Origin: a plasmid
DNA: 64,000 bases
Reading direction: 5' to 3' (one strand)
Sequence record: NZ_CP118109.1
A model generated the notes under the pieces. The model was not told where the DNA came from. It did not search any database and saw nothing but the letters and a program-made list of their open reading frames with translations. How positions within the stretch are numbered: position 1 is the first letter of the stretch; the number at the start of each line of letters is the position of its first letter. A program made the position numbers and the translations under genes. Below are positions 9,277 to 63,703 of this stretch, one piece after another.

Positions 9277-9804
9277 ATGCACGAAGTTACCCCTTTGTTC
9301 GGAGCTGAAGAACGTGATTATTGGCTTAATCAATTAGATATTCTTGCACTCTTGAAAATTCGAAGGATTAATAATTTTGAAACTTCATCGGAATTTAATA
9401 ACTTAACAACTCAGCCTGGTGATGGATTAGTTCAAACATTATTTCGCCTAACTCTTCACGATCTTATATTTCCCTACGGAGCAGTATTTGGCTATTCCGA
9501 TGATGATCATGAAGATACAATTGCGAGAATCGAGTTTTATTTTCGTGAAGATTTAACAGAAACAGAATTAAAAATACTAGCTCCCATCAAAAAGAAGTTT
9601 GAAGATATTCTTGATGATATTTCAGGTTTTGATTTTGATGCCTCGTGGGAAATCGAACAAGAAGATATATTGCATATTAAATATTATTATTTTGTTGGTG
9701 TGGGGTTGGGTGCTATAAATTTTATGAACTTACTTAAAGAAATAAAGCCATATTTAACAGAAGGAGGCAATGGAAATGTCAGTCAAGATCGAGCTTCATC
9801 CTGA
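9277..9804 (+). CDS. hypothetical acidic protein
   Basis: ORF track. Confidence 0.45.
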   Translation: MHEVTPLFGAEERDYWLNQLDILALLKIRRINNFETSSEFNNLTTQPGDGLVQTLFRLTLHDLIFPYGAVFGYSDDDHEDTIARIEFYFREDLTETELKILAPIKKKFEDILDDISGFDFDASWEIEQEDILHIKYYYFVGVGLGAINFMNLLKEIKPYLTEGGNGNVSQDRASS

Positions 9805-10447: not shown

Positions 10448-10458
10448 GAGGAATTATC

Positions 10459-10884
10459 ATGGATTTTATTCAAGAGCAAGAAAACAATGAGGAATTAGAA
10501 AAACAAAAGCAGCTCGATTATATGATGAAATCAGTGGAGCCAGAAGAACCAGAAGACGAGGCAGAAAGCAAAGACGCTAATGTTGAGTATGATCTCTTTG
10601 GTGAGCCTATTGCTGCAGCAACTCCAAAATCAAAATCTTCAAAGCCTAAAGTCAATGCTACAAAGCCATCACCGACTGATCCTGTCAAATATGATACGAA
10701 TTGGGTATGTCTCGTTTACGATAAGCGCATTCCCGTTCCAGAAGACGGATTAACATTGGAAAAAGTGCGACAGTACTTGGAAATGGAGTATCCTCAATTT
10801 TCTAAAGACCGCACTGAAATGATGATTGATAAGGAGCAGAAATATATCATTCCAAATGTAACCAAAGCACCGAAAAAGGGGTGA
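10459..10884 (+). CDS. candidate ubiquitin-like (beta-grasp) protein with acidic disordered N-terminal half, ending in Gly
   Basis: C-terminal ~60 aa has beta-alpha-beta pattern and terminates ...KAPKKG-stop; sits between E2-like and E1-like genes. Confidence 0.3.
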   Translation: MDFIQEQENNEELEKQKQLDYMMKSVEPEEPEDEAESKDANVEYDLFGEPIAAATPKSKSSKPKVNATKPSPTDPVKYDTNWVCLVYDKRIPVPEDGLTLEKVRQYLEMEYPQFSKDRTEMMIDKEQKYIIPNVTKAPKKG

Positions 10885-10891
10885 TTATATT

Positions 10892-11707
10892 ATGATCAAG
10901 GAAATCAATGTAGCTGATTCTTTATCAGGATTTTCTATTGTTCAGATTGGCGTCGGAGGTAATGGAGGATATTTAACCCAGCGTCTTTCAAAAATGCTTA
11001 AATCTTTCCTGCAGACGAATCCAGTTTTTCGCTTTACTTATACGCTTATTGATGGGGATCGATTTGAAGAGAAGAATCTCCTGCGGCAACCATGCATCGA
11101 AGAAGATATTGGTTTTGTAAAGTCTCAAGTGTTAGCTGATCGTTATGGGAATGTTTATGACTTTCCGATTCATTATAAGGATGAGTACATTGAATCTATT
11201 CAAAGTATTGAAGAAGCATTTAGCATTGGGGGTCATCGGGTAAAGATTCTTATCGGCTGTGTTGATAATCATGCAACACGCAAGATCATGCATGAATACT
11301 TTCATAGCTGCACAGGCGATATTATCTACATTGATAGTGGAATTGATCCTTACGATGAAGATGATCCAGCTTCAGGATATTCTGGACAGATTGTTTGCGG
11401 TCTTAAATTAAGCGGAAAAGTAGTGCTACAGCCGGTTGGAGATCTATATGAAGATATCTTAACAGATACGGAATCAAAGCTCCCTACAGAGTCATGCGGG
11501 GATATTGTGGCTAATCAACCGCAGCGCATGATGACAAATGAAATGGCAGCTCTCGTTATGGCTGGCTATCTAAATAACATATTAGGCTCACGCACTCTTA
11601 TCAGTCATGTAACAAATTTCAACGCAAGACTATTATCAACACGCTCTGAATATATTACTGCAGGACAATTCGCTTTAGCAGAAAATGTCCGTTTAGTTAC
11701 AGCATAA
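10892..11707 (+). CDS. E1-like adenylyltransferase (ThiF/MoeB/UBA family)
   Basis: Rossmann IGVGGNGG; LIDGDRFEEKNLLRQ (DxD...NLxRQ); CVDNHATR; candidate catalytic Cys in PTESCGD. Confidence 0.7.
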   Translation: MIKEINVADSLSGFSIVQIGVGGNGGYLTQRLSKMLKSFLQTNPVFRFTYTLIDGDRFEEKNLLRQPCIEEDIGFVKSQVLADRYGNVYDFPIHYKDEYIESIQSIEEAFSIGGHRVKILIGCVDNHATRKIMHEYFHSCTGDIIYIDSGIDPYDEDDPASGYSGQIVCGLKLSGKVVLQPVGDLYEDILTDTESKLPTESCGDIVANQPQRMMTNEMAALVMAGYLNNILGSRTLISHVTNFNARLLSTRSEYITAGQFALAENVRLVTA

Positions 11708-15567: not shown

Positions 15568-15954
15568 ATGTCTCAGCATAAACCTGCAGAAGCCATTTCA
15601 CGCTTCCTGCACGGCATCTTCTCATTCTATCGGGATAAGGGGATGAACGTGCAGGGAGCGAAAGGGCGCATGTATGAAGAATCTTTAACCAAGATTCACA
15701 ACATGATCAAAGATGATAAGGATATTCCGGATCATGCCCAGGTGATTTCTGCACAGTTCTTTTCCAGAACGCTTCAGGCCCGAGGCCGAGCGTTAACAAC
15801 AGAATTAGAGTCAGCCGTAGCGGCTGGAGACGAACATTTGATTGCAACACTCCGCGCCGCTATTGGCGACCTGCACAAGATAAAAGTAGGGGTTGATGAT
15901 TTTATCGTCAACTATAAAGGAGTGTACAATCATGGCAGCAACAACGAAGGCTAA
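15568..15954 (+). CDS. hypothetical protein (immediately upstream of recA; possible recombination mediator)
   Basis: ORF track; position only. Confidence 0.4.
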   Translation: MSQHKPAEAISRFLHGIFSFYRDKGMNVQGAKGRMYEESLTKIHNMIKDDKDIPDHAQVISAQFFSRTLQARGRALTTELESAVAAGDEHLIATLRAAIGDLHKIKVGVDDFIVNYKGVYNHGSNNEG

Positions 15955-17122
15955 AAAAAACGATGAGAAAGAATCGGCTAAGCCTAAAAATCCGGTTATG
16001 ATGGATAATAAAGCAATCCAAGCCGATTTTAATAAGCGCTTTGGCGAAGGCACTTTCTTTACACTTGAAGGAAATGAGCGCACTCAAGTTACTCCTATTC
16101 CTTCTGGTATACCGGCATTCGATTTTGCAACAGGCATTGGAGGGGTTCCTTCTGGTCGTATAATCGAGATTTACGGTCCAGAGTCATCCGGTAAAACAAG
16201 TTTGTGCTTAATGCTTGCAGGAAAATTTCAGGAGTTAGCAAAGCTTCCAGGACCCTTCTTCGGAAAGAAGGTAGGGTTTATAGATGCTGAACATGCTTTA
16301 GACCCTTATCATGTCTCTAACTTGGGCGTAGACACTTCGGCAAATGGGATGTTGATCAACCAACCAGAGACAGGGGAAGGAGCCTTTGATCTAATGGAGG
16401 CTATGTGCTTATCTGAGCAGTTCGGTCTTGTAATAGTCGATTCAGCAGCAGCGTTGGTGCCTCTTGCAGAAGTTGAAAATGATATGGAGTATAATCCGAT
16501 CGGACTTCAAGCTCGAATGTTAGGAAAAGGGCTGCGTAAATTGAAAGGTCCTGCTCAAAAAACGGGAACTACTTTTATTTTTATTAATCAACTTCGTCAA
16601 AAGCCAGGCTTAAAAGGAGCAGTAGTAAATACAACTCCTGGCGGTCTTGCTCTTAGATTTTATGCATCAATGCGTATCGAAGTAAAAGCTACAAAGATCG
16701 AAAAAGGCGGATCTGAGGTTGGCCTGGCAACTACTCTTCATTTCAAGAAGAATAAGGTCGCCGTTCCGTTTACAACCGCTGAGTATGATTACTATTGGGT
16801 CGGTGGCGTTGATCGTGTGAAGAATATTATGGATGTCGCTTGTGATTTAGATATCATTCATCGTAAAGGAGCTTATTATTTTTATGGTGCCGACCCTGAT
16901 GATTCAAAGAATCCTTTCACAGATGGATCTGGTAATGAACTCAAGTGGCAAGGGAAAGAGCAATTGCTTCAAGCTTTAAGAGTTAGCCCAGCACTGTATG
17001 AATATACAAATAATCTTGTTCTTGGAAATATTCCAAGCGATACTGTTTTTGTAGATGAATCTGATTCAGATGAGGAGCCCGATGATTTGGAAGGCGCAAC
17101 TGAAGAAGAAGTATTACTCTAA
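15932..17122 (+). CDS. recA: RecA-family recombinase
   Basis: Walker A GPESSGKTS, LQARMLGKGLRKL, acidic C-terminal tail; AAAGGAG RBS. Confidence 0.9.
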   Translation: MAATTKAKKNDEKESAKPKNPVMMDNKAIQADFNKRFGEGTFFTLEGNERTQVTPIPSGIPAFDFATGIGGVPSGRIIEIYGPESSGKTSLCLMLAGKFQELAKLPGPFFGKKVGFIDAEHALDPYHVSNLGVDTSANGMLINQPETGEGAFDLMEAMCLSEQFGLVIVDSAAALVPLAEVENDMEYNPIGLQARMLGKGLRKLKGPAQKTGTTFIFINQLRQKPGLKGAVVNTTPGGLALRFYASMRIEVKATKIEKGGSEVGLATTLHFKKNKVAVPFTTAEYDYYWVGGVDRVKNIMDVACDLDIIHRKGAYYFYGADPDDSKNPFTDGSGNELKWQGKEQLLQALRVSPALYEYTNNLVLGNIPSDTVFVDESDSDEEPDDLEGATEEEVLL

Positions 17123-18690: not shown

Positions 18691-18767
18691 CTTTATCGTA
18701 ACAAGTGAAATTGTATTGCGTTGCTTTGTGCCAAAAGGCGATGCAAAATTGCGAGGAGGATGAAGTC

Positions 18768-19406
18768 GTGTCTGAAAATTATCTGGAAAGTCGCCTGACG
18801 AAGAATGAAATGTTAGTTTATGAGTATATAAAGCTTAAAACAGAAGAACAGGGATCCGTACAAGAATCTATGATTCAAATGGCTGAAAGCATTAGCGAAA
18901 TGTTTAAGGATCGCATCTCTGTCCGAAAAGTTCATTCCGTGGGCGGCGCAAGTTCCAAAAGCAAAAAAGGTTCTGCCATTAGCACCGCAACGATTTCACG
19001 CGCGGTTAATCGTTTGAAAGCTGAAGGCATAATTGATATTAGACAGTCGCCTGATAGCACGACACCACACGAGTATGTCTTCTTAGGCTTGCCTAATGAA
19101 GAAGAACAAGTGTCTGAAATACTCAATCTGGCTGACAAATTGAACAGTCATTTACAGCGGTTTGAAAAGCTTCTAGTGAATCGTGATAAGGAGATTCATC
19201 AGTTGAAAACGGAGAAGAAGCAGCTGTATGTTCAGCTCGATGCAAAGAATGAGGAGATCCGCGCTTTGAACGAATCATTAGCTTCGCTGCAGAATGAGTT
19301 GAAACAAATCAACACAGATGGAGTGAATCCGTTTAATGACGGTCAATTCGTAGGAATCACGGACATTGGTGATGGCGTTCGAGCCTATCTCGTAAAGACA
19401 CACTAA
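18768..19406 (+). CDS. winged-helix DNA-binding protein with C-terminal coiled coil
   Basis: GTG start after GAGGAGGA; ISTATISRAVNRLKAEGIIDIRQ wHTH; heptad repeats. Confidence 0.4.
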   Translation: MSENYLESRLTKNEMLVYEYIKLKTEEQGSVQESMIQMAESISEMFKDRISVRKVHSVGGASSKSKKGSAISTATISRAVNRLKAEGIIDIRQSPDSTTPHEYVFLGLPNEEEQVSEILNLADKLNSHLQRFEKLLVNRDKEIHQLKTEKKQLYVQLDAKNEEIRALNESLASLQNELKQINTDGVNPFNDGQFVGITDIGDGVRAYLVKTH

Positions 19407-26946: not shown

Positions 26947-27269
26947 TGGGCGACAGCATATTTTGGACTTATGTCTCTTTATCTTTTACCGTAAGCATAC
27001 TGATTGGGCTTTCGAAGGTTCTGCCTCGGAAGCCTGGATCAGAGCGAACGCGAGATAGAGGAGCCTTTCTAACTGTATCTATGTTCATAGTCAATATTAT
27101 GTACACTGCCGCCTTTGGCTGGAACATGAGAGCAGCATCAACAGCAGAAATGGTATTAGACATAATTAACGGTATATTAATGGGTCTTGGATTCATGATG
27201 ATGTACAAGGACGTAACTTTTATTAAAAAAGCAAAGGAGACCGACCGTGACCGAACAGAAAAGAACTAG
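26946..27269 (+). CDS. membrane protein (3 TM)
   Basis: Hydrophobic helices; overlap coupling. Confidence 0.45.
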   Translation: MGDSIFWTYVSLSFTVSILIGLSKVLPRKPGSERTRDRGAFLTVSMFIVNIMYTAAFGWNMRAASTAEMVLDIINGILMGLGFMMMYKDVTFIKKAKETDRDRTEKN

Positions 27270-28833
27270 ACGCACTACAAAGAGTCAGCCGGTTGCTAAA
27301 GAACAAAATCTTGATCTGACAGCACTACCGGATATTACTCCATTTGTGACGAATCCGGATGGAAATGTATATGCGGTAACGAATCTCACAGAGGAGTTTA
27401 TAGCTGTCTTGTTTGCCTGGGTGAGCCGATCACCGAAGTCATTCAAGGAACATCTACTGAAAGCTATTCAAGATGGGCTCATCAATGCAAGCGATTATCA
27501 AGGAAAGGATTCCTTTGAGAAGCTTTCGAAGAAGGCCCAAGACTTCCATGAGAAATGGACGGTTTCTTATGGACACAGCAGCGTTGCGGAGCATGCGAAT
27601 GCTCACGTAGGCATCGAGAAAGTCTCCAGATTAGCTTCTGCTGAGCTGGAGCTGTCCAACACTTTCTATTCCATTACTGAGTATTCTCAGCGCTATCAGA
27701 AGCCTCAGAGAGGGGACTGGCATAATCCAGTGCCTAAATCGATGCCTAATCCAAACGGAATCACCAGAGACATGGTGCCTAATCCGCTTTGGCAAGAGTT
27801 CGAAGATTTTATGAACGAATGTTACGATGTATTCGAACAATTAATTGATGGCGTATATAAGCATCTAAAAGAAGCTGATGATAAATTGTTCCATCCATCA
27901 TCTGGAACCGCAAATATAAAACGCGATAATGAGATTATGAAACTGGCGTTCGAAGATGCACGGTACGCGTTGCCACTTGCTATGCATACTCAACTGGGCA
28001 TGACAGCAAACGGACGTACTTGGCGGGACGGCATTGCTACTCTCTACTCAAGCTCCTATCCGGAGGTCATTAAGCTTGCTGGTGATCTGAAAACAGAGAT
28101 CACTAAAGTACTCCCAACATTGCTGAAGCATGCTGTGCCTTCTCAATATAAGGTGAATAGCAAGCAGCGTATTAAGCATCGTTTTGCTGATCAGCCTAGC
28201 GCAACAAAGGTGAGTAATCTTGCAACCCTAATCAAAGGCCCTTCACCTAAGAAGGCAATCGAAACAATTATTGCTGAAGCCATTGTGCAAGAGAATGGTA
28301 TTCCTTATGAGGAAGCTATGCGCCGGGCAGAGAACATCTCTAATCCGACCGAAATCATCAAAGAGATGCTTTTCGAAATTGGGAAGCATGACACCCCGCC
28401 AGAATCTTTCCGCGGGATTGATTTTTCTTTCGAACTACTTGTTTCTGAAGCCAACTGGCACCAGCTGCTTCGCCATAACCGTAAGACTGACTTTATTTAT
28501 AACCAGCCTTCTCCTTATAATGGCGTTACAATTCCGCCTCGTATTGCTGAAGCAGGTTTGCAGGGTCTGCTCTTTGATCTAGCAGAGAAAGCAGAAACTC
28601 TTTATGAGAAGCTGCTTGGCACAGTAGGACATGAATATACAGCACCATATATTGTCTTGAATACTCACCGCCGCCGCATTGTAGCTCACTTTGATCTGTG
28701 GGAGGCTTACCACTTGATCAATCTGAGAACATCGGAAGAAGCACAGTGGGATATTCGCGAGACATTTGAAGAAGTCTATCGCCAGCTTCATTTGCTTTAT
28801 CCTGATCTGATTGATCAAGCAAAAAGAAGATAG
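27247..28833 (+). CDS. thyX: flavin-dependent thymidylate synthase ThyX, tandem-domain form
   Basis: HSSVAEHA (ThyX H-x-x-x-E-H), ...YSQRY in first half; RHNR and ANGRTWRD in second half; GTG start after AAGGAG. Confidence 0.5.
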   Translation: MTEQKRTRRTTKSQPVAKEQNLDLTALPDITPFVTNPDGNVYAVTNLTEEFIAVLFAWVSRSPKSFKEHLLKAIQDGLINASDYQGKDSFEKLSKKAQDFHEKWTVSYGHSSVAEHANAHVGIEKVSRLASAELELSNTFYSITEYSQRYQKPQRGDWHNPVPKSMPNPNGITRDMVPNPLWQEFEDFMNECYDVFEQLIDGVYKHLKEADDKLFHPSSGTANIKRDNEIMKLAFEDARYALPLAMHTQLGMTANGRTWRDGIATLYSSSYPEVIKLAGDLKTEITKVLPTLLKHAVPSQYKVNSKQRIKHRFADQPSATKVSNLATLIKGPSPKKAIETIIAEAIVQENGIPYEEAMRRAENISNPTEIIKEMLFEIGKHDTPPESFRGIDFSFELLVSEANWHQLLRHNRKTDFIYNQPSPYNGVTIPPRIAEAGLQGLLFDLAEKAETLYEKLLGTVGHEYTAPYIVLNTHRRRIVAHFDLWEAYHLINLRTSEEAQWDIRETFEEVYRQLHLLYPDLIDQAKRR

Positions 28834-29202: not shown

Positions 29203-31191
29203 ATGGCTACTGAGGAGAGAGAGCTCAACAATGTTGTATCGATGGAGAAGGTCAAAGAATTACTGGATGAATTAAATCCAGAGCAACGCATAGCAGCTGA
29301 GGCAATTTATGGACCCGTATTGGTTCTTGCGGGAGCCGGGAGCGGTAAAACCAAAACACTAACCTATCGGATTGCTAACATGCTTGCACATGGCGAGAAA
29401 GCATCCAGTATATTTGTAGCCACATTTACTAATAAGGCAGCCAAGGAAATGAAAGAACGTATCGCTAAAGCTGTTGGTGAAGAGACGGTGCGTGATTTAT
29501 GGATGGGAACCTTTCATTCCCTTTGTGTGCGCATCTTGCGCAAGCATGGACACTTGCTTGGGTATGAGAGCAACTTTACGATCATGGATACAGGTGACTC
29601 TCTTGATCTGATCAAACGTATTTATAAGAAGTTAAATGTTGATGAGAATACAAAACCAGGTTTGGCTTTGCACTATATTGACCAAGCTAAGAATAACCTG
29701 TTTACTCCTGAGTATTGCCTTCATGAGCAGGCCGAAAGCGCAAATGATCAAATGTGCGCCCTTGTTTATCAAGACTTTCAACTCCTGGCTAAAGAAATGA
29801 ACGCTATGGACTTTGGCGACTTGATCATGAACGTAGTAAAGCTTCTTGAGGAATTTCCAGATGCCTGCAATTACTGGCAGAACCGTTTTAAATTTGTTCT
29901 TTCTGATGAGTATCAGGACGCAAATCATGCGCAGTACCATTTGCTTCGGCTACTTGCATTCCCACATAACAACATCTTTGTCGTCGGGGATCCACAGCAG
30001 TCGATCTATAAATTCAGAGGAGCCGCTGTTAACCTGATTCTCTCTTTCGAGTCTCAGTATTTCCCTTGCACAACAGTAAGACTGTCAACAAACTATCGCT
30101 CGAACCATGTTATTGTCCGTGCTGGCAATGAATTAATGAAACAGAATAGTCACATGAGGCTTGAACTAGTAGCTAACAATCCAGAATTAAATGTTCATCC
30201 TATTCTTATTATGAAAACTCAGAATGAACATGCTGAAGCAGCTTTTGTTTCTTTTCAGATTCAGAAGATGGTTAAAGCTGGAACTCATGCGTATGGTGAT
30301 TTTGCAATCCTATACAGAACAAATGATCAGTCCGCACCATTCGAGCAAATGTTTATGCACAATATGATTCCTTATAAAGTCGTGGGCGGCACCGGCTTCT
30401 TTCAACGCGAAGAAATCAAAGACATTGTTGCTTACTTGAAGTCGATCGTTAACCGCAAGGATGATGGTGCCTTAATACGGATCATGAATAAACCTTCTCG
30501 TGGCATTGGAGATACGACTATCAATCATATTGTTGACTATGCTAATGAACATAAAGTAAGTGTTTCTCGAGCGATGAAGAATATTGATGATATTTCTGTG
30601 ATCAAAAAAGGGCCTAGAGGAAAAGTAAGAGACTTCCTCGGTATGCTTGATCATTTCGATTCAATGAAGCACATGGACATTAGAAGATATGTGCACTATG
30701 TGCTTGAACAAAGCGGATACATGGCAATGTGGACTTCAAAAAACAACAAAGAGGCAGAAGAAAAGGTCGATAATATTAATGAGTTTCTTCGACTGGTCGA
30801 ACGTTATAAAGATGAAAATTTAGACAAATCCCTTACTGATTTTATGCAAGAGATATCCCTACTCATGGATTTTGATAATAAAGAGAAGGATAATGCTGTT
30901 CGTATGATGTCTATTCACGGGAGCAAAGGCTTGGAGTTTCCTGTTGTCTTTGGTGTAGGAATGAACGAGGGCATCTTCCCATCATTCCGCAGTTACTCTC
31001 CAGAAGACTTGGAGGAAGAAAGACGATTGGCATATGTTCTCGTTACAAGAGCTGAAAATCAGATTATGCTAACATCTACACGAGAACGCACAAACTATCG
31101 AGGGGGCAAAACTTCTCAGGATTCTTCCCGATTTTTAGATGAACTCCCCGAGGATCTTGTGGTTCGGCATGAGCTTAAACCAAATAATTAG
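29203..31191 (+). CDS. uvrD: UvrD/PcrA-family SF1 DNA helicase
   Basis: Walker A AGAGSGKT, DEYQD, VGDPQQSIY, later helicase motifs. Confidence 0.85.
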   Translation: MATEERELNNVVSMEKVKELLDELNPEQRIAAEAIYGPVLVLAGAGSGKTKTLTYRIANMLAHGEKASSIFVATFTNKAAKEMKERIAKAVGEETVRDLWMGTFHSLCVRILRKHGHLLGYESNFTIMDTGDSLDLIKRIYKKLNVDENTKPGLALHYIDQAKNNLFTPEYCLHEQAESANDQMCALVYQDFQLLAKEMNAMDFGDLIMNVVKLLEEFPDACNYWQNRFKFVLSDEYQDANHAQYHLLRLLAFPHNNIFVVGDPQQSIYKFRGAAVNLILSFESQYFPCTTVRLSTNYRSNHVIVRAGNELMKQNSHMRLELVANNPELNVHPILIMKTQNEHAEAAFVSFQIQKMVKAGTHAYGDFAILYRTNDQSAPFEQMFMHNMIPYKVVGGTGFFQREEIKDIVAYLKSIVNRKDDGALIRIMNKPSRGIGDTTINHIVDYANEHKVSVSRAMKNIDDISVIKKGPRGKVRDFLGMLDHFDSMKHMDIRRYVHYVLEQSGYMAMWTSKNNKEAEEKVDNINEFLRLVERYKDENLDKSLTDFMQEISLLMDFDNKEKDNAVRMMSIHGSKGLEFPVVFGVGMNEGIFPSFRSYSPEDLEEERRLAYVLVTRAENQIMLTSTRERTNYRGGKTSQDSSRFLDELPEDLVVRHELKPNN

Positions 31192-32336: not shown

Positions 32337-32360
32337 AAATTGAATAAGGAGGTGCACCCA

Positions 32361-33728
32361 GTGTCTGCATTTTACCCAGATAATTTTAAGTCAGAATTGA
32401 AAGAGAAAGCTGATATTGTCCAAGTCATCAGTCAGTTTACAACACTTACTCCTATGGGAAGTAATGTATTTGGGATATGCCCATTTCACAACGATCATTC
32501 ACCTTCGATGCAAATTCGTCCAGATACTCAGACGTTTTATTGTCATGCTTGCGGAGCTGGATCGAAAAACCATAGTACGGTACAAGCATCCGATGTTTAT
32601 GGCTTTTTAAAAGGCATCTTAAATGTGAATATGGGCGGTGCGATCGAATGGCTCTCCAGTTTTCTGAATATTCCATTGCCGCCGATGAATCCCGAAGAAG
32701 CAAAAAGAGAAAATATTAGATCTCAGTGGGTGCAATATTGTGAAGAATCTGGCAGGCGGTTTCATGACCGCTTGCTAGAGAGCACTGAAGGACTTAATTA
32801 TCTATACAATCGGGGTTTCGATATTAATGATATCAAACTTTGGAATTTAGGATTAGGCGATGACCAAGTTTATGATTTTCGGAATACCAAGGATCGCATT
32901 GTCTTTTCACTTTATGATTATTGGGGAAATCTGGTCAGTTTTACGGGTCGAGTGCTGCTTCCTGATAATGTTCTCAAAGCAAAAAATGATCAACTTAAAT
33001 CTGATAATAAGCCGACTATTGTTAAATACTTAGATCGAATCGGCCTTAAGAAAGACGATGCAAATTATGCTAATCACCCTTATCCTGAGTTTGTAAAAGG
33101 CGATCATCTATATGGTATTCACATTGCTAAAGATTTTATACGCAGATTCGGTGTTGCTATTATTGTTGAAGGTTGGACTGATATAATTAAGCTTCATAAA
33201 TACGGGGCGCAGCATGCCGTTGCTACAATGGGCGTGGCGCTTACATTAAATCAGGTCAAGTTATTAAAACGGGCAGGAGCAAAGAGTGCGATAATCATGC
33301 GTGATGGTGATCCTGCAGGTGAAGCTGCCATACAGCGTGATTCTAAAATATTAAAAGAAAATGGTATTGAGCCACTCGTCCTTGCGCTCTCTCCAGGACT
33401 TGATCCTTGCACTGTTTGCGATAACTTCAATATGGTGGATGATTCATTTGCTCGTTTTATTGAGCGTTATACCATGCAACTAAATCAGTATCGGCTTAAA
33501 CGGATCTATCAAGAAACGCATGAAGATATCGTTTATCATCAGTCAAGAATAAGTGGCTTGCAGAATGAGCGTATGCGTAAAGTAATTGAAGTCCTTAGCA
33601 GTATAGAGAATCCTGTTGAAAAGGATATCTATGTCCGTCAAGCATCTGAATTGTTTGGCGTAAACTATGAATCTATCCAGGCACATGTTTCGCATTATCA
33701 GGAGAAAGGTGTGTTCATGGTCAGATGA
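32361..33728 (+). CDS. dnaG: DnaG-type DNA primase
   Basis: CHC2 zinc finger CPFHNDHSPSM...C-x2-C; TOPRIM IIVEGWTD...MRDGDPAGEAA; GTG start after AAGGAGG. Confidence 0.85.
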   Translation: MSAFYPDNFKSELKEKADIVQVISQFTTLTPMGSNVFGICPFHNDHSPSMQIRPDTQTFYCHACGAGSKNHSTVQASDVYGFLKGILNVNMGGAIEWLSSFLNIPLPPMNPEEAKRENIRSQWVQYCEESGRRFHDRLLESTEGLNYLYNRGFDINDIKLWNLGLGDDQVYDFRNTKDRIVFSLYDYWGNLVSFTGRVLLPDNVLKAKNDQLKSDNKPTIVKYLDRIGLKKDDANYANHPYPEFVKGDHLYGIHIAKDFIRRFGVAIIVEGWTDIIKLHKYGAQHAVATMGVALTLNQVKLLKRAGAKSAIIMRDGDPAGEAAIQRDSKILKENGIEPLVLALSPGLDPCTVCDNFNMVDDSFARFIERYTMQLNQYRLKRIYQETHEDIVYHQSRISGLQNERMRKVIEVLSSIENPVEKDIYVRQASELFGVNYESIQAHVSHYQEKGVFMVR

Positions 33729-47311: not shown

Positions 47312-48652
47312 ATGACTATGACACTTGAACATGATATTGATTTAGATAAGAAGGTTGACCTGCAGCTGGCTGATGATGCGAATAAGGTAAGAAAGATAAC
47401 AATTAAGACTGCTGAGCTATTAAAAGCAGTGAGACGAGCTGTATCCATTGTTAACCATAATCATTCAACTCTTGTATTGCAAAATATATTCTTTGCTACT
47501 ACAGATAACGGAATTATTTTACGAGCTGTAAACGACAGCTTTTCTGTAGAAACAACAATCGATCCGGCACATTGCGTGATTGAAGATGATCCGAGATCTG
47601 TTTTGTTTCCAGCTAAGCGTCTTTTAGATATTGTCAGTAAAATGAGCGGAAAGAATACGACGATCTTTATTCGGGATAATTTCATTCGAATCAAGTCAGG
47701 TCGAGCTAATATGGATATTGGAGTCCAGGATGCAGACGAGTTCCCAAAACTGCCTCAGATCAAGAAAGGAAACACTTTCGAAATCGCTGCTGATGCATTG
47801 CTTGATATGTACACTCGTACAGTATTTGCAACCTCTAAGCTTGAAAGCATGCCTGTTTTGCAGGGCGTACTACATGACATTGAAGATCAAAGATTCCGCT
47901 GTATTGCAACGGATCGTCATCGTTTTGCGCAGGTCTATCATCCGACAACTATTGAGTGTGAGCCAATGCGTGTCAGCGTTCCTGCAATAACAATCAATGA
48001 AGTTATGAAGCATCTGAAAGAAAAGAAGGCTGATACGATCAAGGTTACAGTCAAAGACACTCGTGTAGTATACGATATGAACGATACTGTCCTTTACTCC
48101 CAGGTATTAGAAGGCACATATCCGGATACAAATCGAATCATCCCTACTGGAGCTAAGGCTACTGTGACAGTTCCTAATTCAGAGTTCCTAGGCGCAGTGA
48201 AGCGGGCAGCTATCTTTTTGGATGATTCTAATTCTTCTAAAATAACAATCATGATTGATGGCGAAAAGAACCAGATGCGCATTCAATCACTGGATAGTGA
48301 TGAAGGCACAATGTTAGAAGATATGGTAACACTAAAAGGAGAGGGCGGGTTTGCTTCATCCACGATGAATGGTCGTTATCTGCTTGAGTCCCTAAGCAGG
48401 ATTGGTGGCACTGCTCATGTTGAGATTAAGATGACATCAACAATGCCTTTTCTCTTAAGAGAAGCTAATGCTCTTGAAGGTAATGTAAATGTCGTTGTGC
48501 CTGTTAAGCATAGACTTGATAGCTCGAAATCTATCGAAAACTTTACGTCAAATTATAACGAAGAAGAAGCTGATCCTTTTGCTGGTCGTGCAGAGGAATA
48601 CGCTGAGCAGCAAGCTTCTGAGGCTACTGAAAGCCAAGAAGGAGCAGCTTAA
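47312..48652 (+). CDS. dnaN: DNA polymerase III beta sliding clamp (DnaN-like) with acidic C-terminal extension
   Basis: Three-domain length; ATDRHRFA (DnaN ATDGHRLA), domain-I N-terminal pattern. Confidence 0.75.
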   Translation: MTMTLEHDIDLDKKVDLQLADDANKVRKITIKTAELLKAVRRAVSIVNHNHSTLVLQNIFFATTDNGIILRAVNDSFSVETTIDPAHCVIEDDPRSVLFPAKRLLDIVSKMSGKNTTIFIRDNFIRIKSGRANMDIGVQDADEFPKLPQIKKGNTFEIAADALLDMYTRTVFATSKLESMPVLQGVLHDIEDQRFRCIATDRHRFAQVYHPTTIECEPMRVSVPAITINEVMKHLKEKKADTIKVTVKDTRVVYDMNDTVLYSQVLEGTYPDTNRIIPTGAKATVTVPNSEFLGAVKRAAIFLDDSNSSKITIMIDGEKNQMRIQSLDSDEGTMLEDMVTLKGEGGFASSTMNGRYLLESLSRIGGTAHVEIKMTSTMPFLLREANALEGNVNVVVPVKHRLDSSKSIENFTSNYNEEEADPFAGRAEEYAEQQASEATESQEGAA

Positions 48653-49558: not shown

Positions 49559-49835
49559 AAGAACTATAAAGGGTAGGTTATCTGATTTAGCCGTAGGAAG
49601 TCTGGAGTTATTCGTTAGTAGGTTTGTAGGCGCTGCAGAGCCGATCACTGAGGACGGTAGCCTGGATGGACTATTCAAAAATCAGACGACAGTATGCAAA
49701 AACTGACGTTACACAACAGCCAGGACCGAACCTGCAAAAAAGGCGATGAAGAGAGGCAAAAGATGGGCCCTCCGCGACAACCTAGGGGTGTGATGAGGGT
49801 TGTCATGATCATACTGGATGTGAGTCTGCCATGAT

Positions 49836-49908
49836 AGCTTAATTGGGAAAGCGCATGACTGAGAATCATGAGATGCGGTTCAATTCCGATGTGGTGGCAT
49901 TCTAGTAT
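49836..49908 (+). tRNA. tRNA-like element (non-canonical; D-arm and anticodon arm fold, loop CUGAGAA; weak T-stem)
   Basis: GCCATGA acceptor, GCTT/AAGC D-stem, CATGA/TCATG anticodon stem, GGTTCAATTCC T-loop; T-stem only 3 bp; no CCA. Confidence 0.3.
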
Positions 49909-57048: not shown

Positions 57049-58092
57049 TTAACGAAGCAATTGAAGAACTGCTTGTGGTTGTTGGTTTGCTTGAGCCAAC
57101 ATTGCTTGAGCTGCTTGGGAAAGAATCGAGTTCTTAGTTTGCTCAACCATTTCTTTCGCCATGTCAACGTCACGAATACGGGATTCAGATGCTGTCAGGT
57201 TCTCTGCTGTTGTACCCAGGTTATTTACTGTGTGCTCCAAACGGTTTTGTACGGAACCCAATTTAGAACGCTCAGCAGATACGCTCTCGATCGCTGCGTT
57301 AATTGTAGTGATTGCTGTATCAGCGTCTTCTTGGTTAGAAATGTTGATACCAGCGTTTACTTTTGCTTCATCAGCATATGCTTCGTCAACTTTGACAACC
57401 ATTTTGTCGCCATCGTAGTAACCAGCTACAACAACATCATCTTCGGTTGCCTTTCTAGTTGTACCATTACCACTGCCATCGTCAATGTCGTCTCCGACAT
57501 TAACTGCTTCTTTAAAAGTAAGTGTAGTTGTTCCGGCAGTCAAAGTTGCAGTAGTGCCATCGTTATCAGATGTGTACTCTGTGCTTACTTTCAGCGCTTC
57601 AGCGCCCATGTCACTAATTGAAAGACTAATGCTTTGACCTGCATTTGCTCCGATTTGGAATGTAACATTTTCAGCAGAACCATTGATCAGCTTTTTCGTA
57701 TTGAACTCAGTGTCTGTAGAGATACGAGTCAATTCTTCAGCTAATTGGTTTACTTCTTTTTGAAGCTCTGCGCGGTCGGAATCCGTGTTTGTGTCAGATG
57801 CTGATTGAACTGCCAGCTCACGCATACGTTGCAGGATAGAATGAGATTCATTCAATGCACCTTCAGCTGTCTGGATCAGTGAGATACCATCTTGAGCGTT
57901 ACGAGAAGCTTGCTCAAGACCGCGGATTTGTCCACGCATTTTTTCGGAGATTGCAAGACCCGCTGCGTCATCACCAGCACGGTTGATGCGAAGACCGGAA
58001 GACAATTTCTCCATGTTTTTTCCTTGTGCAGAGTTAGCTGCGCCCAGGCTGCGTTGAGTGTTAATCGCCGCAATGTTGTGATTGATAATCAT
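57049..58092 (-). CDS. hag: flagellin (Hag/FliC family)
   Basis: N-terminal [16 protein letters not shown]...[30 protein letters not shown] and C-terminal [14 protein letters not shown]...[25 protein letters not shown], near-identical to B. subtilis Hag D0/D1; GGAGGT RBS. Confidence 0.95.
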
Positions 58093-58150
58093 TTTTAACC
58101 TACCTCCATGTAGTTACGTCAAGGAGAGTCCTTTCTCCTTGCGTTAAGAT

Positions 58151-58348
58151 TTAGAGCGGCAGTCCATTTTGTCTGCAGAGCTCTTTTTGTTCGTCTGACA
58201 AGATCTCTTCCCTGAGTATCTTAACGTCATTCGGAGCAGTTATTTCTAACTTTGGATTGCCGTAATCATCGACCTTCACTTTAATATGTATGGAATTGCC
58301 GATAATGATCGACTCACCCGCTCTTCTGTTGACTGTTAATTTTCCCAT
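58151..58348 (-). CDS. csrA: carbon storage regulator CsrA (flagellin translation regulator)
   Basis: MGKLTVNRRAGESIIIGNSIHIKV...ITAPNDVKILREEI matches CsrA (LVLTRKVGESIVIGDDIEITV...APKEV-V-REEI); directly upstream of hag as in B. subtilis. Confidence 0.8.
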   Translation of the reverse strand: MGKLTVNRRAGESIIIGNSIHIKVKVDDYGNPKLEITAPNDVKILREEILSDEQKELCRQNGLPL

Positions 58349-58382
58349 GCCGACTACCAACTTCCCTATTGTGATAGTTATT

Positions 58383-58409
58383 TTATCGGCGGGATCCGGA
58401 AATAGTTTA
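58383..58409 (-). promoter_or_regulatory. sigmaD (sigma-28, flagellar) promoter TAAA-N15-GCCGATAA driving csrA-hag
   Basis: Minus-strand TAAA (58409-58406), 15-nt spacer, GCCGATAA (58390-58383) vs consensus TAAA-N15-GCCGATAT. Confidence 0.65.
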
Positions 58410-58445
58410 TACCATTTTAAAAAAATTTTATTGGAGCTGATAAAT

Positions 58446-58790
58446 ATGAAATATAACCCTACTCTACTCAACGTTTTTAATCTTAATAAATTTGATCCTC
58501 GTGAGTTAACGTATAGCGAAAAAATGCTGGTCGAGGAATATCTTGGCGAAATCTTAGAGGAACAATATTCCGGAGACATCCAAGAAATTATCCATTATCA
58601 AGATAAACGCATTACATTTAGCGAGGATTCTGAAGGCTTCAAACTGCCCCTAGCAAACGATCTACCACTTGAATATAACCTATGGAATATAAATAGTTTA
58701 TTCGCCTATGGAGAGGCTGATATGGAGCTTGTGGCGGTCTTAGAGAATCCCGAAAATACAATGAATCAGGTGATGGTTAGTATGTATTAA
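58446..58790 (+). CDS. hypothetical acidic protein (divergent from csrA)
   Basis: ATG 58446 after GGAGCTGA; ORF track frame. Confidence 0.4.
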   Translation: MKYNPTLLNVFNLNKFDPRELTYSEKMLVEEYLGEILEEQYSGDIQEIIHYQDKRITFSEDSEGFKLPLANDLPLEYNLWNINSLFAYGEADMELVAVLENPENTMNQVMVSMY

Positions 58791-59481: not shown

Positions 59482-60009
59482 ATGATTGGCCTGCTTAGAC
59501 AGCGACCTGCGTTAATTGTTGGATTTATTGTAAATAGCGATACCCACATTGAAGCTGTACGTAATTTATTTCCTGTCGAGTACCATAAAAGGATGATCTT
59601 TCTTTCGCTAAGCGCGCTTGATCTAACCGATAATATGAAGCGTTATGTAACCATGCTAGGCAATCTTACTCATCATTTAATTATTTGCCTAGATCCTGGC
59701 CAAATCGCTGATGCTCTTACTCCTGTATTTAAGGAGTGGGTGCCTTCTGCCGAAGAAGTTGTTCTCAACGTTCCTTTGCTCGAATGCGAAAAAGAATATT
59801 TGGGTCTTCAAATTTTTGAAGCATACCGTTTTTCTGTTTGTGAGAAGAAACGTGCTAAAGAATTAATACCCTGCATAAATTGTACCAAGATGACCTATAT
59901 TATCGACTCTAGCTGGAATGTGCCTTTATGTAGTGATGCATGCTTTGAAGAATGGGAATCGAATCATGCGAAGAAGCTGCGCTCAAAACGCCATAAGCAA
60001 AAATTATAA
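59482..60009 (+). CDS. hypothetical protein with C-terminal FCS/TRASH-type zinc ribbon
   Basis: GAGGTGAGG RBS; CINC-x15-CSDACFEEW. Confidence 0.45.
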   Translation: MIGLLRQRPALIVGFIVNSDTHIEAVRNLFPVEYHKRMIFLSLSALDLTDNMKRYVTMLGNLTHHLIICLDPGQIADALTPVFKEWVPSAEEVVLNVPLLECEKEYLGLQIFEAYRFSVCEKKRAKELIPCINCTKMTYIIDSSWNVPLCSDACFEEWESNHAKKLRSKRHKQKL

Positions 60010-60260
60010 TATCTAAGCGGATGATTGGATGTTTTCAGTTGTCCGCTTCTTTGTTTTTCGATTTTTATCTACCTTCTTCCCTCTCATTTTTACCGCCTCC
60101 GTTTGATAGTTTCTACTCTTTTTATACCCTATTTGCTAGGACGAACACAAGTCTTTTGTCGATTCACTTATCCACAGCTCTGCCTATTATTTATATATGG
60201 TGGAGAAAAGATTTTATTAAAGAAAGTACTTCTTTGCGTTAAATTTTTTAACCCCCCTCT

Positions 60261-60463
60261 TTAAAATTTTTAACGTAATAGCCTTTCGTTAAAATTTTTA
60301 ACGTAATGTTTTTGCCTAAAATCGTTACGTTAAAAATTTTAACATAAGGGTTATCCACAGATCGATCTACTACGTTAAAATTTTTAACGTAATGAGCTTC
60401 AACTCTCAAATTCGTTACGTTAAAAATTTTAACGTAAGAGATAACCACAAAATCTGTGGATAA
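60261..60463. repeat. origin-like array: five palindromic iterons (TTACGTTAAAA(A)TTTT(T)AACGTAA) plus two perfect DnaA boxes in inverted orientation
   Basis: Iterons at 60261, 60287, 60323, 60371, 60412; TTATCCACA 60351-60359; TGTGGATAA 60455-60463; AT-rich. Confidence 0.65.
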
Positions 60464-60477
60464 CTTTTCAATAAAAA

Positions 60478-60508
60478 AAGCAGAAGGATGTCTCCCTCTG
60501 CTCTCTTT
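60478..60508. terminator. bidirectional intrinsic terminator between rep gene and iteron array
   Basis: AGCAGAAGG-loop-CCCTCTGCT with T-tracts on both sides. Confidence 0.55.
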
Positions 60509-61483
60509 TTACAAAAATTTTTCTGCTGTAGTAACACAAATAATTGCATCATTATTGTTGGTCAAATCTCTAAAGATGTTAAGAATTTGCTTCGAATGAT
60601 AATTATCAATCCATTCTGCAGCGAATGGCGCAGGCGCAAGCACCACCAGTTTGTTATCTTCGAAGAACCCAAAAGTCTCTTTAAACCATGTGCCAAATGT
60701 AACGGCGCTTATAGATCGTTTCAAGATATCTTCGATCTCACTCCATAAGTGAATGTCTTGAGGTGTTCGATTCAGGAACAGCTCTTCACGTTTTTTGTTG
60801 ATCCTTACTTCCAACGGAGCGGTGACTTCAATTGATCCAGGTGTTCTAGCTCTCCCCTTCTCATGCAGCTTCTTAATCTCGTCTTCATGATCATTATTCT
60901 CTGGGAGCATAACCTCGTTAGACTCAAAAAGTTTTTCCATAAAGCGATTATGTTGAAGGAGTAGCCACTCAGGCAGCTGCTTCAGCTCTGCCTCACTTAA
61001 GAAAGGAACGGTCTGTCTTACTTTCACTCGAGTGCTATCATTCATTCCCTTTTTCTTTTTACTCTCTGCCCAGAACCGCATAACAAAACCGTAGTCTTCA
61101 AGTTTACTTAGGTATTTAATCAGTGTAACACGACTGATCCCCATCATTTCTGCCATGTGTTCTTGTGACATATGAGGGATTGATTCGTTGAATGAAAGGC
61201 TCAGATAATTTATGTAGGTCATGGTAGCTTCTGGCCCAAGAAAGTATTGCCAAAATTTAATCAGATAATTGTGAACGGTGGTTTTGTTGCCTGGTGTGTA
61301 AGGCAGTGAAAGACCCAAGTTCTCGAGCGAATAACTAGTGACATCTTTTTCAGTGTAATAGATCTTCCTCGTCTCCTCGACCATTTCCTCAATGCTCTCC
61401 CCGTTAACTTTTCTTTTTCGCGGCACCTTATTTCCCGTCTTTTCATAGCGGAAATAATGTATGTCATTCGTGCTGTCGCCCAT
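60509..61483 (-). CDS. replication initiator: N-terminal RepA_N-like wHTH plus C-terminal DnaA domain-I-like domain
   Basis: HTH MSQEHMAEMMGISRVTLIKYLSKLEDYGFV; C-terminal LWSEIEDILKRSISAVTFGTWFKETFGFFEDNKLVVLAPAPFAAEWIDNYHSKQILNIF aligns with B. subtilis DnaA N-terminus ([25 protein letters not shown]...LTITAPNEFARDWLESRYLHLI); start set at ATG 61483 behind GAGGAGG. Confidence 0.6.
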   Translation of the reverse strand: MGDSTNDIHYFRYEKTGNKVPRKRKVNGESIEEMVEETRKIYYTEKDVTSYSLENLGLSLPYTPGNKTTVHNYLIKFWQYFLGPEATMTYINYLSLSFNESIPHMSQEHMAEMMGISRVTLIKYLSKLEDYGFVMRFWAESKKKKGMNDSTRVKVRQTVPFLSEAELKQLPEWLLLQHNRFMEKLFESNEVMLPENNDHEDEIKKLHEKGRARTPGSIEVTAPLEVRINKKREELFLNRTPQDIHLWSEIEDILKRSISAVTFGTWFKETFGFFEDNKLVVLAPAPFAAEWIDNYHSKQILNIFRDLTNNNDAIICVTTAEKFL

Positions 61484-61505
61484 CTTCAAAGACCTCCTCA
61501 AGTAA

Positions 61506-61534
61506 TTGACAGGAATAGGAGGCTCCGATATACT
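61506..61534 (+). promoter_or_regulatory. sigmaA-type promoter TTGACA-N17-TATACT divergent from rep
   Basis: -35 61506-61511, -10 61529-61534. Confidence 0.55.
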
Positions 61535-61540
61535 AGACCT

Positions 61541-61668
61541 AACGTAAAAATCATATTCCTCTATATCTCTCTGATGATTCTCTCAATTTTCAAGGAGCCA
61601 TGACACTAAAGTCTAGGTATAGCAGGAACCTTTAAGCCACCTGACCACGGGTGGCTTTTTCCTTTTAT
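61541..61668 (+). ncRNA. candidate small RNA (~125 nt) from promoter 61506 to terminator 61636-61665; potentially antisense to rep leader
   Basis: Promoter + intrinsic terminator (GCCACC-TGACCAC-GGGTGGC + TTTTT) with no ORF (only 11 codons) between. Confidence 0.35.
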
Positions 61669-61743
61669 TGATATTAACATACATTCTTAGACTTTGGAAA
61701 CTCCCCCAGTACTTTTATCACCAAGGTATGATTTGACAACGAC

Positions 61744-61768
61744 TTGACACTAAAAGTTTGGTATAATA
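61744..61768 (+). promoter_or_regulatory. promoter with extended -10 TGGTATAAT (TTGACA 12 nt upstream)
   Basis: TTGACActaaaagtttgGTATAAT upstream of 61804 gene. Confidence 0.5.
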
Positions 61769-61803
61769 TACTAAACCCAACAAATGGATGTTGGGTGGTC
61801 ATT

Positions 61804-62352
61804 ATGAAATATGTCAAAGGCTTAGACGAAAAATACTACGGAGAGATGATCGTAGAGATCGACCAAAAGTTCCAGGCGCTCCATGCAAAATTGAATCTGT
61901 ATTGCCCTGGGCTGCATTTAATGCCCACGCCGGTTACTGTAGAGGGTGTTCAATATCCTTATCCTCTTGCAGCACAAATACGAGAGATCTATCTCTATAT
62001 GATCGGTCAAAGAGAAATGCCGCAAGACATAGTAAGCATGCTAGAAAGTATCTGCTCTCTAATTTGGGAGAACAACTTTCTGAATGAAACATTCTTTACT
62101 ATCGACTGGCTAAAGTGGGAAAAAACCTTGATCGGAAGGTTTGTAAGATGCACCTACATAAGAATTACACTAGATGCTGGCGAACCGATCACAGCAAAAC
62201 AATTGGCGCTTATGACTGGCCTTACACCGGCTGGTATAGTAAAAGCCATAAATACCAAGAGGCTTCATGGGCGGAAGATCAAGAGCGAATGGTCTATTCC
62301 AGCGGAAGATGCCACCACTTTTATTTGGAAGCACGTCAATACATCAAGATAG
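61804..62352 (+). CDS. hypothetical protein with C-terminal HTH-like segment
   Basis: ITAKQLALMTGLTPAGIVKAINTKRLHG; ORF track trimmed. Confidence 0.4.
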   Translation: MKYVKGLDEKYYGEMIVEIDQKFQALHAKLNLYCPGLHLMPTPVTVEGVQYPYPLAAQIREIYLYMIGQREMPQDIVSMLESICSLIWENNFLNETFFTIDWLKWEKTLIGRFVRCTYIRITLDAGEPITAKQLALMTGLTPAGIVKAINTKRLHGRKIKSEWSIPAEDATTFIWKHVNTSR

Positions 62353-62365
62353 GGGATTGAGCTGC

Positions 62366-62518
62366 ATGTACATTGTAACCTGGGTTGAAAATGATCAAGT
62401 CCAAGATAGAGGATTCAAAACTCCTTCAGAGCGAGATACTTTTATTAGCAATCTTAAAGAAGAAGGCATTGAATCTGATTGGTACTCTGACGAAGAAGCC
62501 AAGGAGGAAAATCGTTAA
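62366..62518 (+). CDS. small hypothetical acidic protein (50 aa)
   Basis: GGGGATTGAG then ATG 62366; ORF track frame 62267..62518. Confidence 0.3.
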   Translation: MYIVTWVENDQVQDRGFKTPSERDTFISNLKEEGIESDWYSDEEAKEENR

Positions 62519-63085: not shown

Positions 63086-63703
63086 TTATAGGATGTCCTC
63101 GTCTTTAAGTCTTGCGATGACTTCCTTCTTAATTTCTTCATGAACATCCTCGATCGGCGCATTTCCATCTATAATTGGATGATCTTTTCTTCTGAAGATT
63201 CGATAGGCAAAGCTAACTTGATGAAGCAAATTAAGATCAGATTCATAACGATCATTAACACCGCCATTATGCTTTCCTTTTCGCTCCATGCTGAGCTCTG
63301 GTGGAATTTCAATAACAATATCCATATCTGGCTTACGTAAAAGCTCCTGAAGCTTTTCGCACCAATCATATGGCATTTCATTCACTATGCCATAAACAAA
63401 TTGACTTAGAGTATAGCGATCTAGGATTAGTACATCTACACCGGCAGCTTCTAGTTCATTGAAGTATTCTTGTTGAGCATGCTTATCGGCTGCCATGATC
63501 AGCTCGATAGTAGCTTGGCTAACAGGGTATTCCTTACGAAGCCATTTTGCGATGAGCTCTCCGGTTGGCGTATCATACCGATGAAACTCACTCTGCTCTA
63601 CCTTGAGACCTTTCTCCCGCAATGCTTCAGTAAGCAGCTTTGCTTGAGTGGCTTTCCCACTCTTATCAAGTCCCTCAAGGGCTATGATGAACATTTTCTT
63701 CAT
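63086..63703 (-). CDS. tmk: thymidylate kinase
   Basis: P-loop LEGLDKSGKAT, DRY motif (ILDRYTLS), lid region; typical dTMP kinase length. Confidence 0.85.
   Translation of the reverse strand: MKKMFIIALEGLDKSGKATQAKLLTEALREKGLKVEQSEFHRYDTPTGELIAKWLRKEYPVSQATIELIMAADKHAQQEYFNELEAAGVDVLILDRYTLSQFVYGIVNEMPYDWCEKLQELLRKPDMDIVIEIPPELSMERKGKHNGGVNDRYESDLNLLHQVSFAYRIFRRKDHPIIDGNAPIEDVHEEIKKEVIARLKDEDIL

Follow-up and report, generated by a model that had tools for sequence, protein, structure and literature searches.

A putative pBS72-type origin and an initiator with a C-terminal DnaA domain I on a Paenibacillus urinalis plasmid

What would a plasmid initiator do with a copy of the first domain of DnaA, and what is the role of DnaA boxes in the origin beside it? 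These questions are raised by a region within a 64,000-nucleotide stretch of sequence record NZ_CP118109.1 (the window, in whose positions all coordinates are given unless another record or locus is named), where a minus-strand gene, rep, lies next to an array of palindromic repeats (iterons) and DnaA boxes. The product of the gene, Rep, is identical to WP_274338658.1 (WDI05036.1), which NCBI describes as "DnaA N-terminal domain-containing protein (plasmid)" from Paenibacillus urinalis. WP_274338658.1 sits on a 214,846-bp record labelled by NCBI as a P. urinalis plasmid. Public annotation thus already names the protein after the domain, and the replicon family is known. The region is very probably the origin and initiator of this plasmid, and of the type found in pBS72. 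Taken as a whole, it is probable that this is a theta-type replication module of the pBS72 family in which the DnaA-like domain recruits the host protein DnaD. For the recruitment step by itself, which is suggested by conserved residues, our confidence lies a little above even.

The initiator and its putative origin

Sequence profile and fold both identify the C-terminal domain of Rep as a genuine homologue of DnaA domain I. The DnaA_N family (PF11638) matches amino acids 246–305 with 34.6 bits against a gathering cut-off of 24.6 (E 1.5e-8), over profile positions 3–64 of 65. The top PDB match of Rep is domain I of Bacillus subtilis DnaA (4TPS_B), with an E-value of 6e-4 for the single sequence; a profile built from 21 members of the Rep family matches the same structure with an E-value of 4e-19. 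A first-pass annotation, made from the letters of the window, had aligned this C-terminus with DnaA domain I, and the profile matches bear the alignment out. The AlphaFold2 model of Rep has a mean predicted local distance difference test score (pLDDT) of 76.5. From the N-terminus it runs from a long beta hairpin through a winged helix and a disordered linker (amino acids 195–222) to a compact C-terminal domain (pLDDT 86–92), which has the DnaA domain I fold. The identity to DnaA domain I is about 22%, which points to an old fusion and not to a recent capture from the host.

Pfam matches to HTH_Crp_2, HTH_36 and MarR-type families cover amino acids 84–136. These matches and the model agree with the first-pass annotation that the N-terminal part contains a winged helix, but its label of RepA_N type is not supported: RepA_N (PF06970) has no Pfam match to Rep at E ≤ 1, and a profile search of the PDB gave none. 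Rep_3 is likewise absent from the Pfam matches at this threshold. In PHROGs, Rep matches phrog_26369, "replication initiation protein" (E 2e-31). The gene starts with an ATG after a GAGGAGG ribosome-binding site.

Rep is homologous along its full length to RepA of the family prototype, plasmid pBS72 of B. subtilis strain 72 (NZ_KX711616.1, first coding sequence, 126–1160). With tblastn, amino acids 1–306 of the query (94%) are aligned at 26% identity (E 1e-28), and the two proteins align end to end in the family alignment. The pBS72 protein has its own match to the DnaA N-terminus (TIGR00362, positions 4–64, E 1.8e-8). In Bacillus and Paenibacillus, vectors based on pBS72 replicate by the theta mode at low copy number (PMC5615212, PMC5031790, PMC10789242). 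One of them, pHT01, contains the pBS72 repA gene and the downstream intergenic region with iterons and a DnaA box, and little else of pBS72. No description of the pBS72 origin was found in the accessible literature, and the vector papers are silent on the origin and, apart from a remark quoted below, on DnaA dependence. Nothing relevant was found in the literature on PF11638 or DnaA_N in plasmid or phage initiators.

The elements downstream of rep are collected in Table 1. Moving away from rep, a hairpin terminator and a DnaA box come first, then four iterons with another DnaA box among them, and finally the half-iteron pair, the AT-rich stretch and the third box. The window was scanned with the 23-mer TTACGTTAAAAATTTTAACGTAA, allowing up to two mismatches. 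Four full iterons were found, where none is expected in shuffled sequence, and there are no further copies in the window beyond the array. The array as a whole (60234–60437) comprises four full and two half copies of the 23-bp palindrome; the iterons are spaced 41–45 bp apart, or about four helical turns. The first-pass annotation had counted five iterons; four are confirmed, but the fifth, at 60256–60278, is the right arm only. It faces a left-arm half iteron at 60234–60251, so that the array ends in two half sites on either side of a C-run. Within rep itself there is no repeat family, just two short palindromes.

A terminator had been proposed between the array and the minus-strand gene, and folding finds a hairpin there, with 16 bp, a folding energy of −22.6 kcal/mol and a z-score of −5.2. 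The pattern-based terminator scan made no call at this hairpin. With a run of U on the rep strand and one of T on the opposite strand, the hairpin is probably bidirectional. The AT-rich stretch at the far end of the array is a candidate DNA-unwinding element. An Rfam scan of 59500–62500 gave sub-threshold chance matches on palindromes only.

Table 1. Features of the rep region. L002 and L003 are the loci of the two closest relatives of Rep.
Feature	Position	Strand	Evidence or remark
Candidate small RNA	61506..61665	+	promoter 61506-61534, transcript from ~61541, terminator 61634-61657
rep, 324-aa initiator, pBS72 RepA family, WP_274338658.1	60509..61483	-	ORF, NCBI exact protein, tblastn, PHROGs
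N-terminal winged-helix DNA-binding region, ~aa 46-160	61004..61348	-	presumed iteron reader
C-terminal DnaA-domain-I-like module, aa 241-323	60515..60763	-	
Hairpin terminator, directly after rep stop codon	60473..60508	.	folding; kept in L002, L003
Perfect DnaA box TGTGGATAA, rep-proximal	60455..60463	-	same position and sequence in L002, L003
Iteron, perfect palindrome TTACGTTAAAAATTTTAACGTAA	60415..60437	.	0 mismatches
Iteron	60370..60392	.	1 mismatch
Perfect DnaA box between iterons	60351..60359	+	kept as TCTGTGGATAACC in L002, L003
Iteron	60325..60347	.	1 mismatch
Iteron	60284..60306	.	1 mismatch
Half-iteron pair around C-run, TTGCGTTAAATTTTTTAA-CCCCCCTC-TTTAAAATTTTTAACGTAA	60234..60278	.	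composite also in L002, L003
GC cluster, then 70-80% AT stretch	60177..60233	.	AT profile; TATATAAA core kept in L002, L003
Perfect DnaA box, distal	60168..60176	+	kept with flank GAATCGNCAAAAG in L002, L003

Homologues of Rep were found by tblastn on 41 plasmid records, most of them of 80–390 kb, from Bacillus, Paenibacillus, Cytobacillus, Niallia, Brevibacillus, Terribacillus and Thermobacillus. A word-indexed homology search with the family alignment gave 18 proteins, and an exhaustive search of representatives gave 61 clusters at E ≤ 1e-30 and 284 at E ≤ 1e-10. Relatives carry precomputed PF13730 and PF11638 matches. The only phage homologues that reach into the C-terminal domain are in the Brevibacillus phages Jenst, which also encodes a partition gene, and SecTim467; in a few Bacillus phages the similarity is confined to the N-terminal half of Rep. 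Rep had been called a phage protein in the first-pass annotation. This is not supported by the plasmid label of the NCBI record, by the plasmid homologues or by the roughly 40 open reading frames scanned in this 64-kb window of the approximately 215-kb plasmid, none of which matches a phage structural family. A nucleotide search with the 1.7-kb region, against a collection that did not contain the source plasmid, gave no phage match and only two weak 142-bp matches to Paenibacillus polymyxa megaplasmids.

The layout of the region was compared in 18 loci around Rep homologues. In nearly all of them a non-coding gap of 400–800 bp lies immediately 3' of rep, and 22–23-bp palindromic iterons with an AT core are present directly 3' of rep in L001, L002, L005, L008, L009, L011, L014, L015 and L016. 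The iteron arms are lineage-specific (CTACCTTAAAATTTTTAAGGTAG, CCTATGAAAAATTCTTTCATAGG, GCCTATCAAAATTTGATAGGC and GCCCGTCATTTCCTGACGGGC, with ATTAAAATTTAAT in pBS72). Beyond the array each locus has its own set of genes, among them YolD, HIT, ArdC, ImmA, Spo0E, Fic and others. Thus rep is the sole constant neighbour of the arrays, which argues that the repeats are read by Rep and not by a partition protein.

Palindromic repeat arrays are also typical of plasmid centromeres, and the repeats might instead be a parS-like partition site, or the operator of another protein. We regard this as extremely improbable. The array stays directly 3' of rep at at least nine loci while the other neighbours change, and the repeat arms change together with Rep. 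In pBS72 the ParA operon is on the other side of repA, and pHT01, in which ParA is truncated, keeps the downstream array and still replicates. The homology of the family and the conserved layout support the earlier proposal of a replication origin beside its initiator.

The closest relatives, L002 and L003, have Reps that are 52% identical to the one described here and origins with 84% column identity. The terminator, the three exact DnaA boxes with some of their flanks, the AT-rich core and the composite around the C-run are all conserved, as is TTAAAA(N)TTTTAA at the centre of the iterons. The iteron arms have changed in concert, from TTACG...CGTAA here to CTACC...GGTAG in L002 and L003. Such a switch of the arms around fixed boxes would be expected where the specificity of Rep resides in the arms and an unvarying host protein recognises the boxes. 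Strains of P. urinalis contain several large plasmids with paralogous Reps that are 31–33% identical. The iterons of one such plasmid (L009) are quite different (TCGCCTCTCAATTTTTGAGAGGC), which fits compatibility through iteron divergence.

In several loci (L007 1–710, L009 1–770 and L016 1–388) a second gene, annotated as "replication initiation protein" and coding for about 410 amino acids, is upstream of the pBS72-type rep and in divergent orientation to it. These lineages are all Paenibacillaceae (Paenibacillus and Thermobacillus), and they have no perfect DnaA boxes downstream of rep.

Candidate partners of the domain and the role of the DnaA boxes

In a HMMER alignment, T265, W266, F287, A288, W291 and W247 of Rep correspond to T26, W27, F49, A50, W53 and W8 of B. 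subtilis DnaA, and the Rep motif SKPSFDTWFK is nearly identical to its counterpart in DnaA. T265 and W266 are invariant in the aligned family (21 of 21 members). Among 82 cluster representatives of the Rep type, the position of T26 is occupied by T in 59, that of W27 by an aromatic residue in 81, and that of F49 by F in 48 and by M in 12. The position of W8 has W in only 44 of the 82, and the tryptophan is missing from pBS72 RepA and several other members. In DnaA the substitutions T26A, W27A and F49A are lethal, and the altered proteins lose both DnaD binding, in two-hybrid and pull-down assays, and the recruitment of DnaD to oriC (Winterhalter et al., PMC10201431). An unrelated plasmid system, RepN/oriN, needs DnaD and DnaB and does not need DnaA (PMC10201431). 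From these residues we infer that the best-conserved surface of the Rep domain is the DnaD-binding one.

The proposed mechanism is as follows. Rep dimers would use the N-terminal winged helix to occupy the palindromic iterons and, once bound, would display several copies of the C-terminal domain I, each with the same patch as DnaA (T265, W266 and F287). The patch would recruit host DnaD, then DnaB, then the DnaI-DnaC helicase complex, to the AT-rich stretch at 60177–60233, and the plasmid would in this way bypass DnaA as the recruiting hub. DnaA bound at its boxes would be accessory or regulatory and not essential; it might help melting, couple replication to the host cycle or be titrated. The differing outer arms of the iterons in sister plasmids would set the specificity between Rep and origin, and hence compatibility.

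The first-pass annotation had offered two mechanisms, the hijacking of partners of domain I such as DnaD, and the recruitment of host DnaA. The retention of T265, W266 and F287 makes the former the better fit of the two, as a mechanism suggested by residues in common. Recruitment of host DnaA is not supported, the counter-argument being the reported dispensability of DnaA for pBS72. In the work of Titok and colleagues from 2006, pBS72 reportedly needs RepA, the iteron origin, DnaB, DnaC, DnaD, DnaG, DnaI, DnaE, PolC, DnaN and DnaX, and is said not to need DnaA, PriA, PcrA or Pol I. Delivery of the helicase was reportedly proposed to take place through a domain of RepA homologous to the helicase-binding domain of DnaA. 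The homology between the RepA domain and DnaA was reportedly noted for pBS72 already in 2006.

Domain I of DnaA is a known self-interaction module (PMC5448010, PMC8287927). The domain in Rep could accordingly serve contacts between Rep molecules, either in cooperative loading onto the iterons or in handcuffing for copy control, and recruit nothing from the host. The spacing of the iterons suits cooperative contacts. Outside Rep, the module is found in two or three tandem copies in short proteins of 250–320 amino acids, and also inside proteins of 590–950 amino acids that are unrelated to Rep (P0082, P0096, P0145, P0116, P0138 and P0139; NCBIfam NF005206). It appears to have a wide distribution outside DnaA as a mobile unit for protein interaction, and the tandem copies suggest a generic role in protein-protein contacts. 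As the sole function of the domain in Rep, self-association is improbable, since the best-kept residues are the T and W of the DnaD patch and not the tryptophan of the dimer interface. It is compatible with DnaD recruitment and with a joint action of Rep and DnaA, and does not exclude either.

The window contains just three perfect DnaA boxes (TTATCCACA), which start at 60168 (+), 60351 (+) and 60455 (−) and all fall within 296 bp; 0.6 are expected by chance in the whole window. The first-pass annotation had reported the boxes at 60351 and 60455, which are both exact, and the third lies just outside the region that it described. Across the loci, boxes were counted in the region within 450 bp downstream of rep (8.1 kb in total) and in the remaining 87.5 kb. 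There are 18 perfect boxes in the former and 2 in the latter, a 97-fold enrichment. At least one perfect box is present in 8 of 13 independent lineages, where 0.005 would be expected per lineage, and none is present in the other five. In the Bacillus licheniformis plasmid pSCDB14, one perfect box and four boxes with a single mismatch are clustered in tandem. No association was found across the loci between the W8-equivalent tryptophan and the presence of DnaA boxes.

These boxes raise the possibility of a hybrid origin, at which DnaA bound to the three boxes is a required co-initiator. Domain I of Rep would pair with domain I of DnaA through the tryptophan (W6 in Escherichia coli, W8 in B. subtilis), and in the mixed complex the AAA+ domain of DnaA would open the AT-rich stretch by the distal box while Rep gives the origin its specificity. 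The best argument for such an origin is that the boxes are kept exactly while the iteron arms diverge. The enrichment across the family and the cluster in pSCDB14 are in line with it, as is the alignment of W247 with W8, a tryptophan shared by the 44 representatives counted above. The distal box, the GC cluster and the AT-rich triplets also loosely resemble the box-spacer-trio layout of chromosomes. The published definition of that unwinding unit is a DnaA box with at most two mismatches, a spacer of 0–16 bp and at least three consecutive NAN trios (PMC8287927). After the distal box come GCTCTGCC and TAT TAT TTA TAT, a run that in this register contains only two consecutive NAN motifs, and a DnaA-trio reading of the distal box region is not convincing. 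The tryptophan is lacking in pBS72 RepA and several other members, as are perfect boxes in five lineages, and DnaA is reportedly dispensable for pBS72. We consider a hybrid origin unlikely.

It is likewise doubtful that the work is divided in another way, with Rep providing the origin specificity and the recruiting surface, and host DnaA at the boxes providing strand opening, its regulation or a tie to the host cycle. This idea of a split initiator comes from the boxes being under clear purifying selection in a family whose prototype reportedly needs no DnaA. If it were true, DnaA and domain I of Rep could also be rivals for DnaD, or for regulators of the SirA type, and the plasmid could modulate initiation at the chromosome.

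Several observations weigh against the preferred reading, in which Rep recruits DnaD and bypasses DnaA. The DnaA boxes are under strong purifying selection, and this argues that DnaA acts somehow at the origin. The residues T26, W27 and F49 are conserved in DnaA generally, and their conservation in Rep may partly reflect the fold and not a shared partner. A pBS72 derivative is "thought to" replicate in a DnaA-dependent manner (PMC5615212), which would also favour a hybrid origin. The plasmid has its own primase, clamp and RecA, so that partners other than host DnaD are possible. Finally, the GC skew is positive across almost 59 kb of co-oriented plus-strand genes and changes sign at 59–60 kb, at the origin. 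The polarity of this change is that of a terminus or of a switch in gene orientation and not that of a bidirectional origin, but with only 4 kb of sequence to its right the flip says little; it may follow from gene orientation or from replication in one direction.

That DnaA boxes are so strictly conserved in a family reportedly independent of DnaA is puzzling, and so is the retention of the DnaD-binding patch. The family provides a comparative data set in which the DnaD-binding patch of DnaA domain I appears to have been copied onto a plasmid initiator and kept there. In most lineages DnaA boxes lie beside the iterons, and the iteron arms switch while the rest of the origin stays fixed. The family would allow a clean and cheap test of how helicases are loaded on Gram-positive plasmids without DnaA, and of what the boxes do. 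As vectors derived from pBS72 are widely used in Bacillus, the results could be of practical use in the engineering of copy number and compatibility.

Other features of the window

A small RNA is predicted on the plus strand upstream of rep. Its promoter is near consensus, with 11 of 12 matches, and points away from the rep start; an intrinsic terminator was called by the scan about 100 nt past the promoter. Both elements are kept in L002 and L003, in which the DNA upstream of rep is 83% identical. The predicted RNA of about 120 nt has a minimum free energy of −33.3 kcal/mol (z −3.65), and no Rfam family was found for it in the scan of 59500–62500. There is a half-iteron, TTACGTTA, on the minus strand at 61539–61546, within the predicted RNA region. 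If rep is transcribed from a conserved extended −10 element further upstream, the RNA would be antisense to the rep leader. It is a possible copy-control countertranscript.

The window codes for RecA, DnaG, DnaN, a UvrD/PcrA-type helicase, ThyX, Tmk, UDG, SNF2 helicases, an MrpR-type recombinase, flagellin and CsrA. The genes for RecA (15893–17122), ThyX (27247–28833, 528 amino acids), the UvrD/PcrA-type helicase (29203–31191), DnaG with a DnaB-binding tail (32340–33728), DnaN (47312–48652) and thymidylate kinase (63086–63703) give the plasmid a set of replication and nucleotide-metabolism genes of jumbo-phage size. No replicative helicase was identified among the open reading frames scanned. 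A 233-amino acid open reading frame at 18705–19406 (+) has a weak match to phrog_8102, "replication initiation protein" (E 1.7e-6), and may be a second initiator-like gene.

The flagellin (hag) and CsrA-like genes at 57049–58579 (−) adjoin the replication module. The same neighbourhood of hag, csrA and rep is found on the 205-kb plasmid pSCDB14 of B. licheniformis (L011, 108–1280), and in view of this shared neighbourhood flagellin and CsrA appear to travel with the replicon type. At 9770–11707 (+) a 141-amino acid open reading frame separates a Prok-E2_D (E2-like) gene from a nearby ThiF (E1-like) gene. This cassette looks like a bacterial system for ubiquitin-like conjugation and is possibly a defence system. 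A single tRNA-Leu gene (anticodon GAG) is present at 49827–49898 (+).

Comparison with known systems

The similarity of the Rep domain to the helicase-loading factor DciA (DUF721) is much weaker than that to DnaA. DciA is chromosomal and is not fused to an origin-binding domain, and it is not known from Bacillota.

The iteron plasmids of Gram-negative bacteria, such as pSC101, P1, F and RK2, have origins that combine iterons, DnaA boxes and an AT-rich stretch, as is the case here. Their Rep_3 initiators contain two winged helices and no DnaA-like domain, and are unrelated to Rep. Their iterons are direct repeats and not palindromes, and DnaA is generally required.

The RepA_N initiators, such as RepA of pSK41 (PDB 4PTA), resemble Rep in being winged-helix proteins that act on repeats and use the host primosome without DnaA. 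RepN/oriN of pLS32 belongs with them. They differ from Rep, which has no match to the Pfam RepA_N family, whose iterons lie outside the rep gene and whose C-terminal domain is unrelated to theirs.

With domain I of chromosomal DnaA (PDB 4TPS, 2WP0 and 2E0G) Rep shares sequence homology and the patch formed by T26, W27 and F49. In Rep the domain is at the C-terminus of a winged-helix protein, whereas in DnaA it is at the N-terminus of an AAA+ ATPase, and Rep is without domains II, III and IV.

The system compared most directly is pBS72 (Titok et al. 2003, 2006), the basis of the vectors pHT01, pHCMC04 and pNDH33. The two replicons differ in the sequence of the iterons, in the number of DnaA boxes (three here, one in pBS72) and in the W8-equivalent tryptophan, which is present here and missing in pBS72 RepA. 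The host genus is another one and the rest of the plasmid is unrelated, being about 215 kb in size with genes for RecA, DnaG, DnaN, ThyX and flagellin. In both, the initiator joins a winged helix to a DnaA domain I, and the origin directly 3' of its gene contains palindromic iterons that have an AT core, as well as at least one perfect DnaA box.

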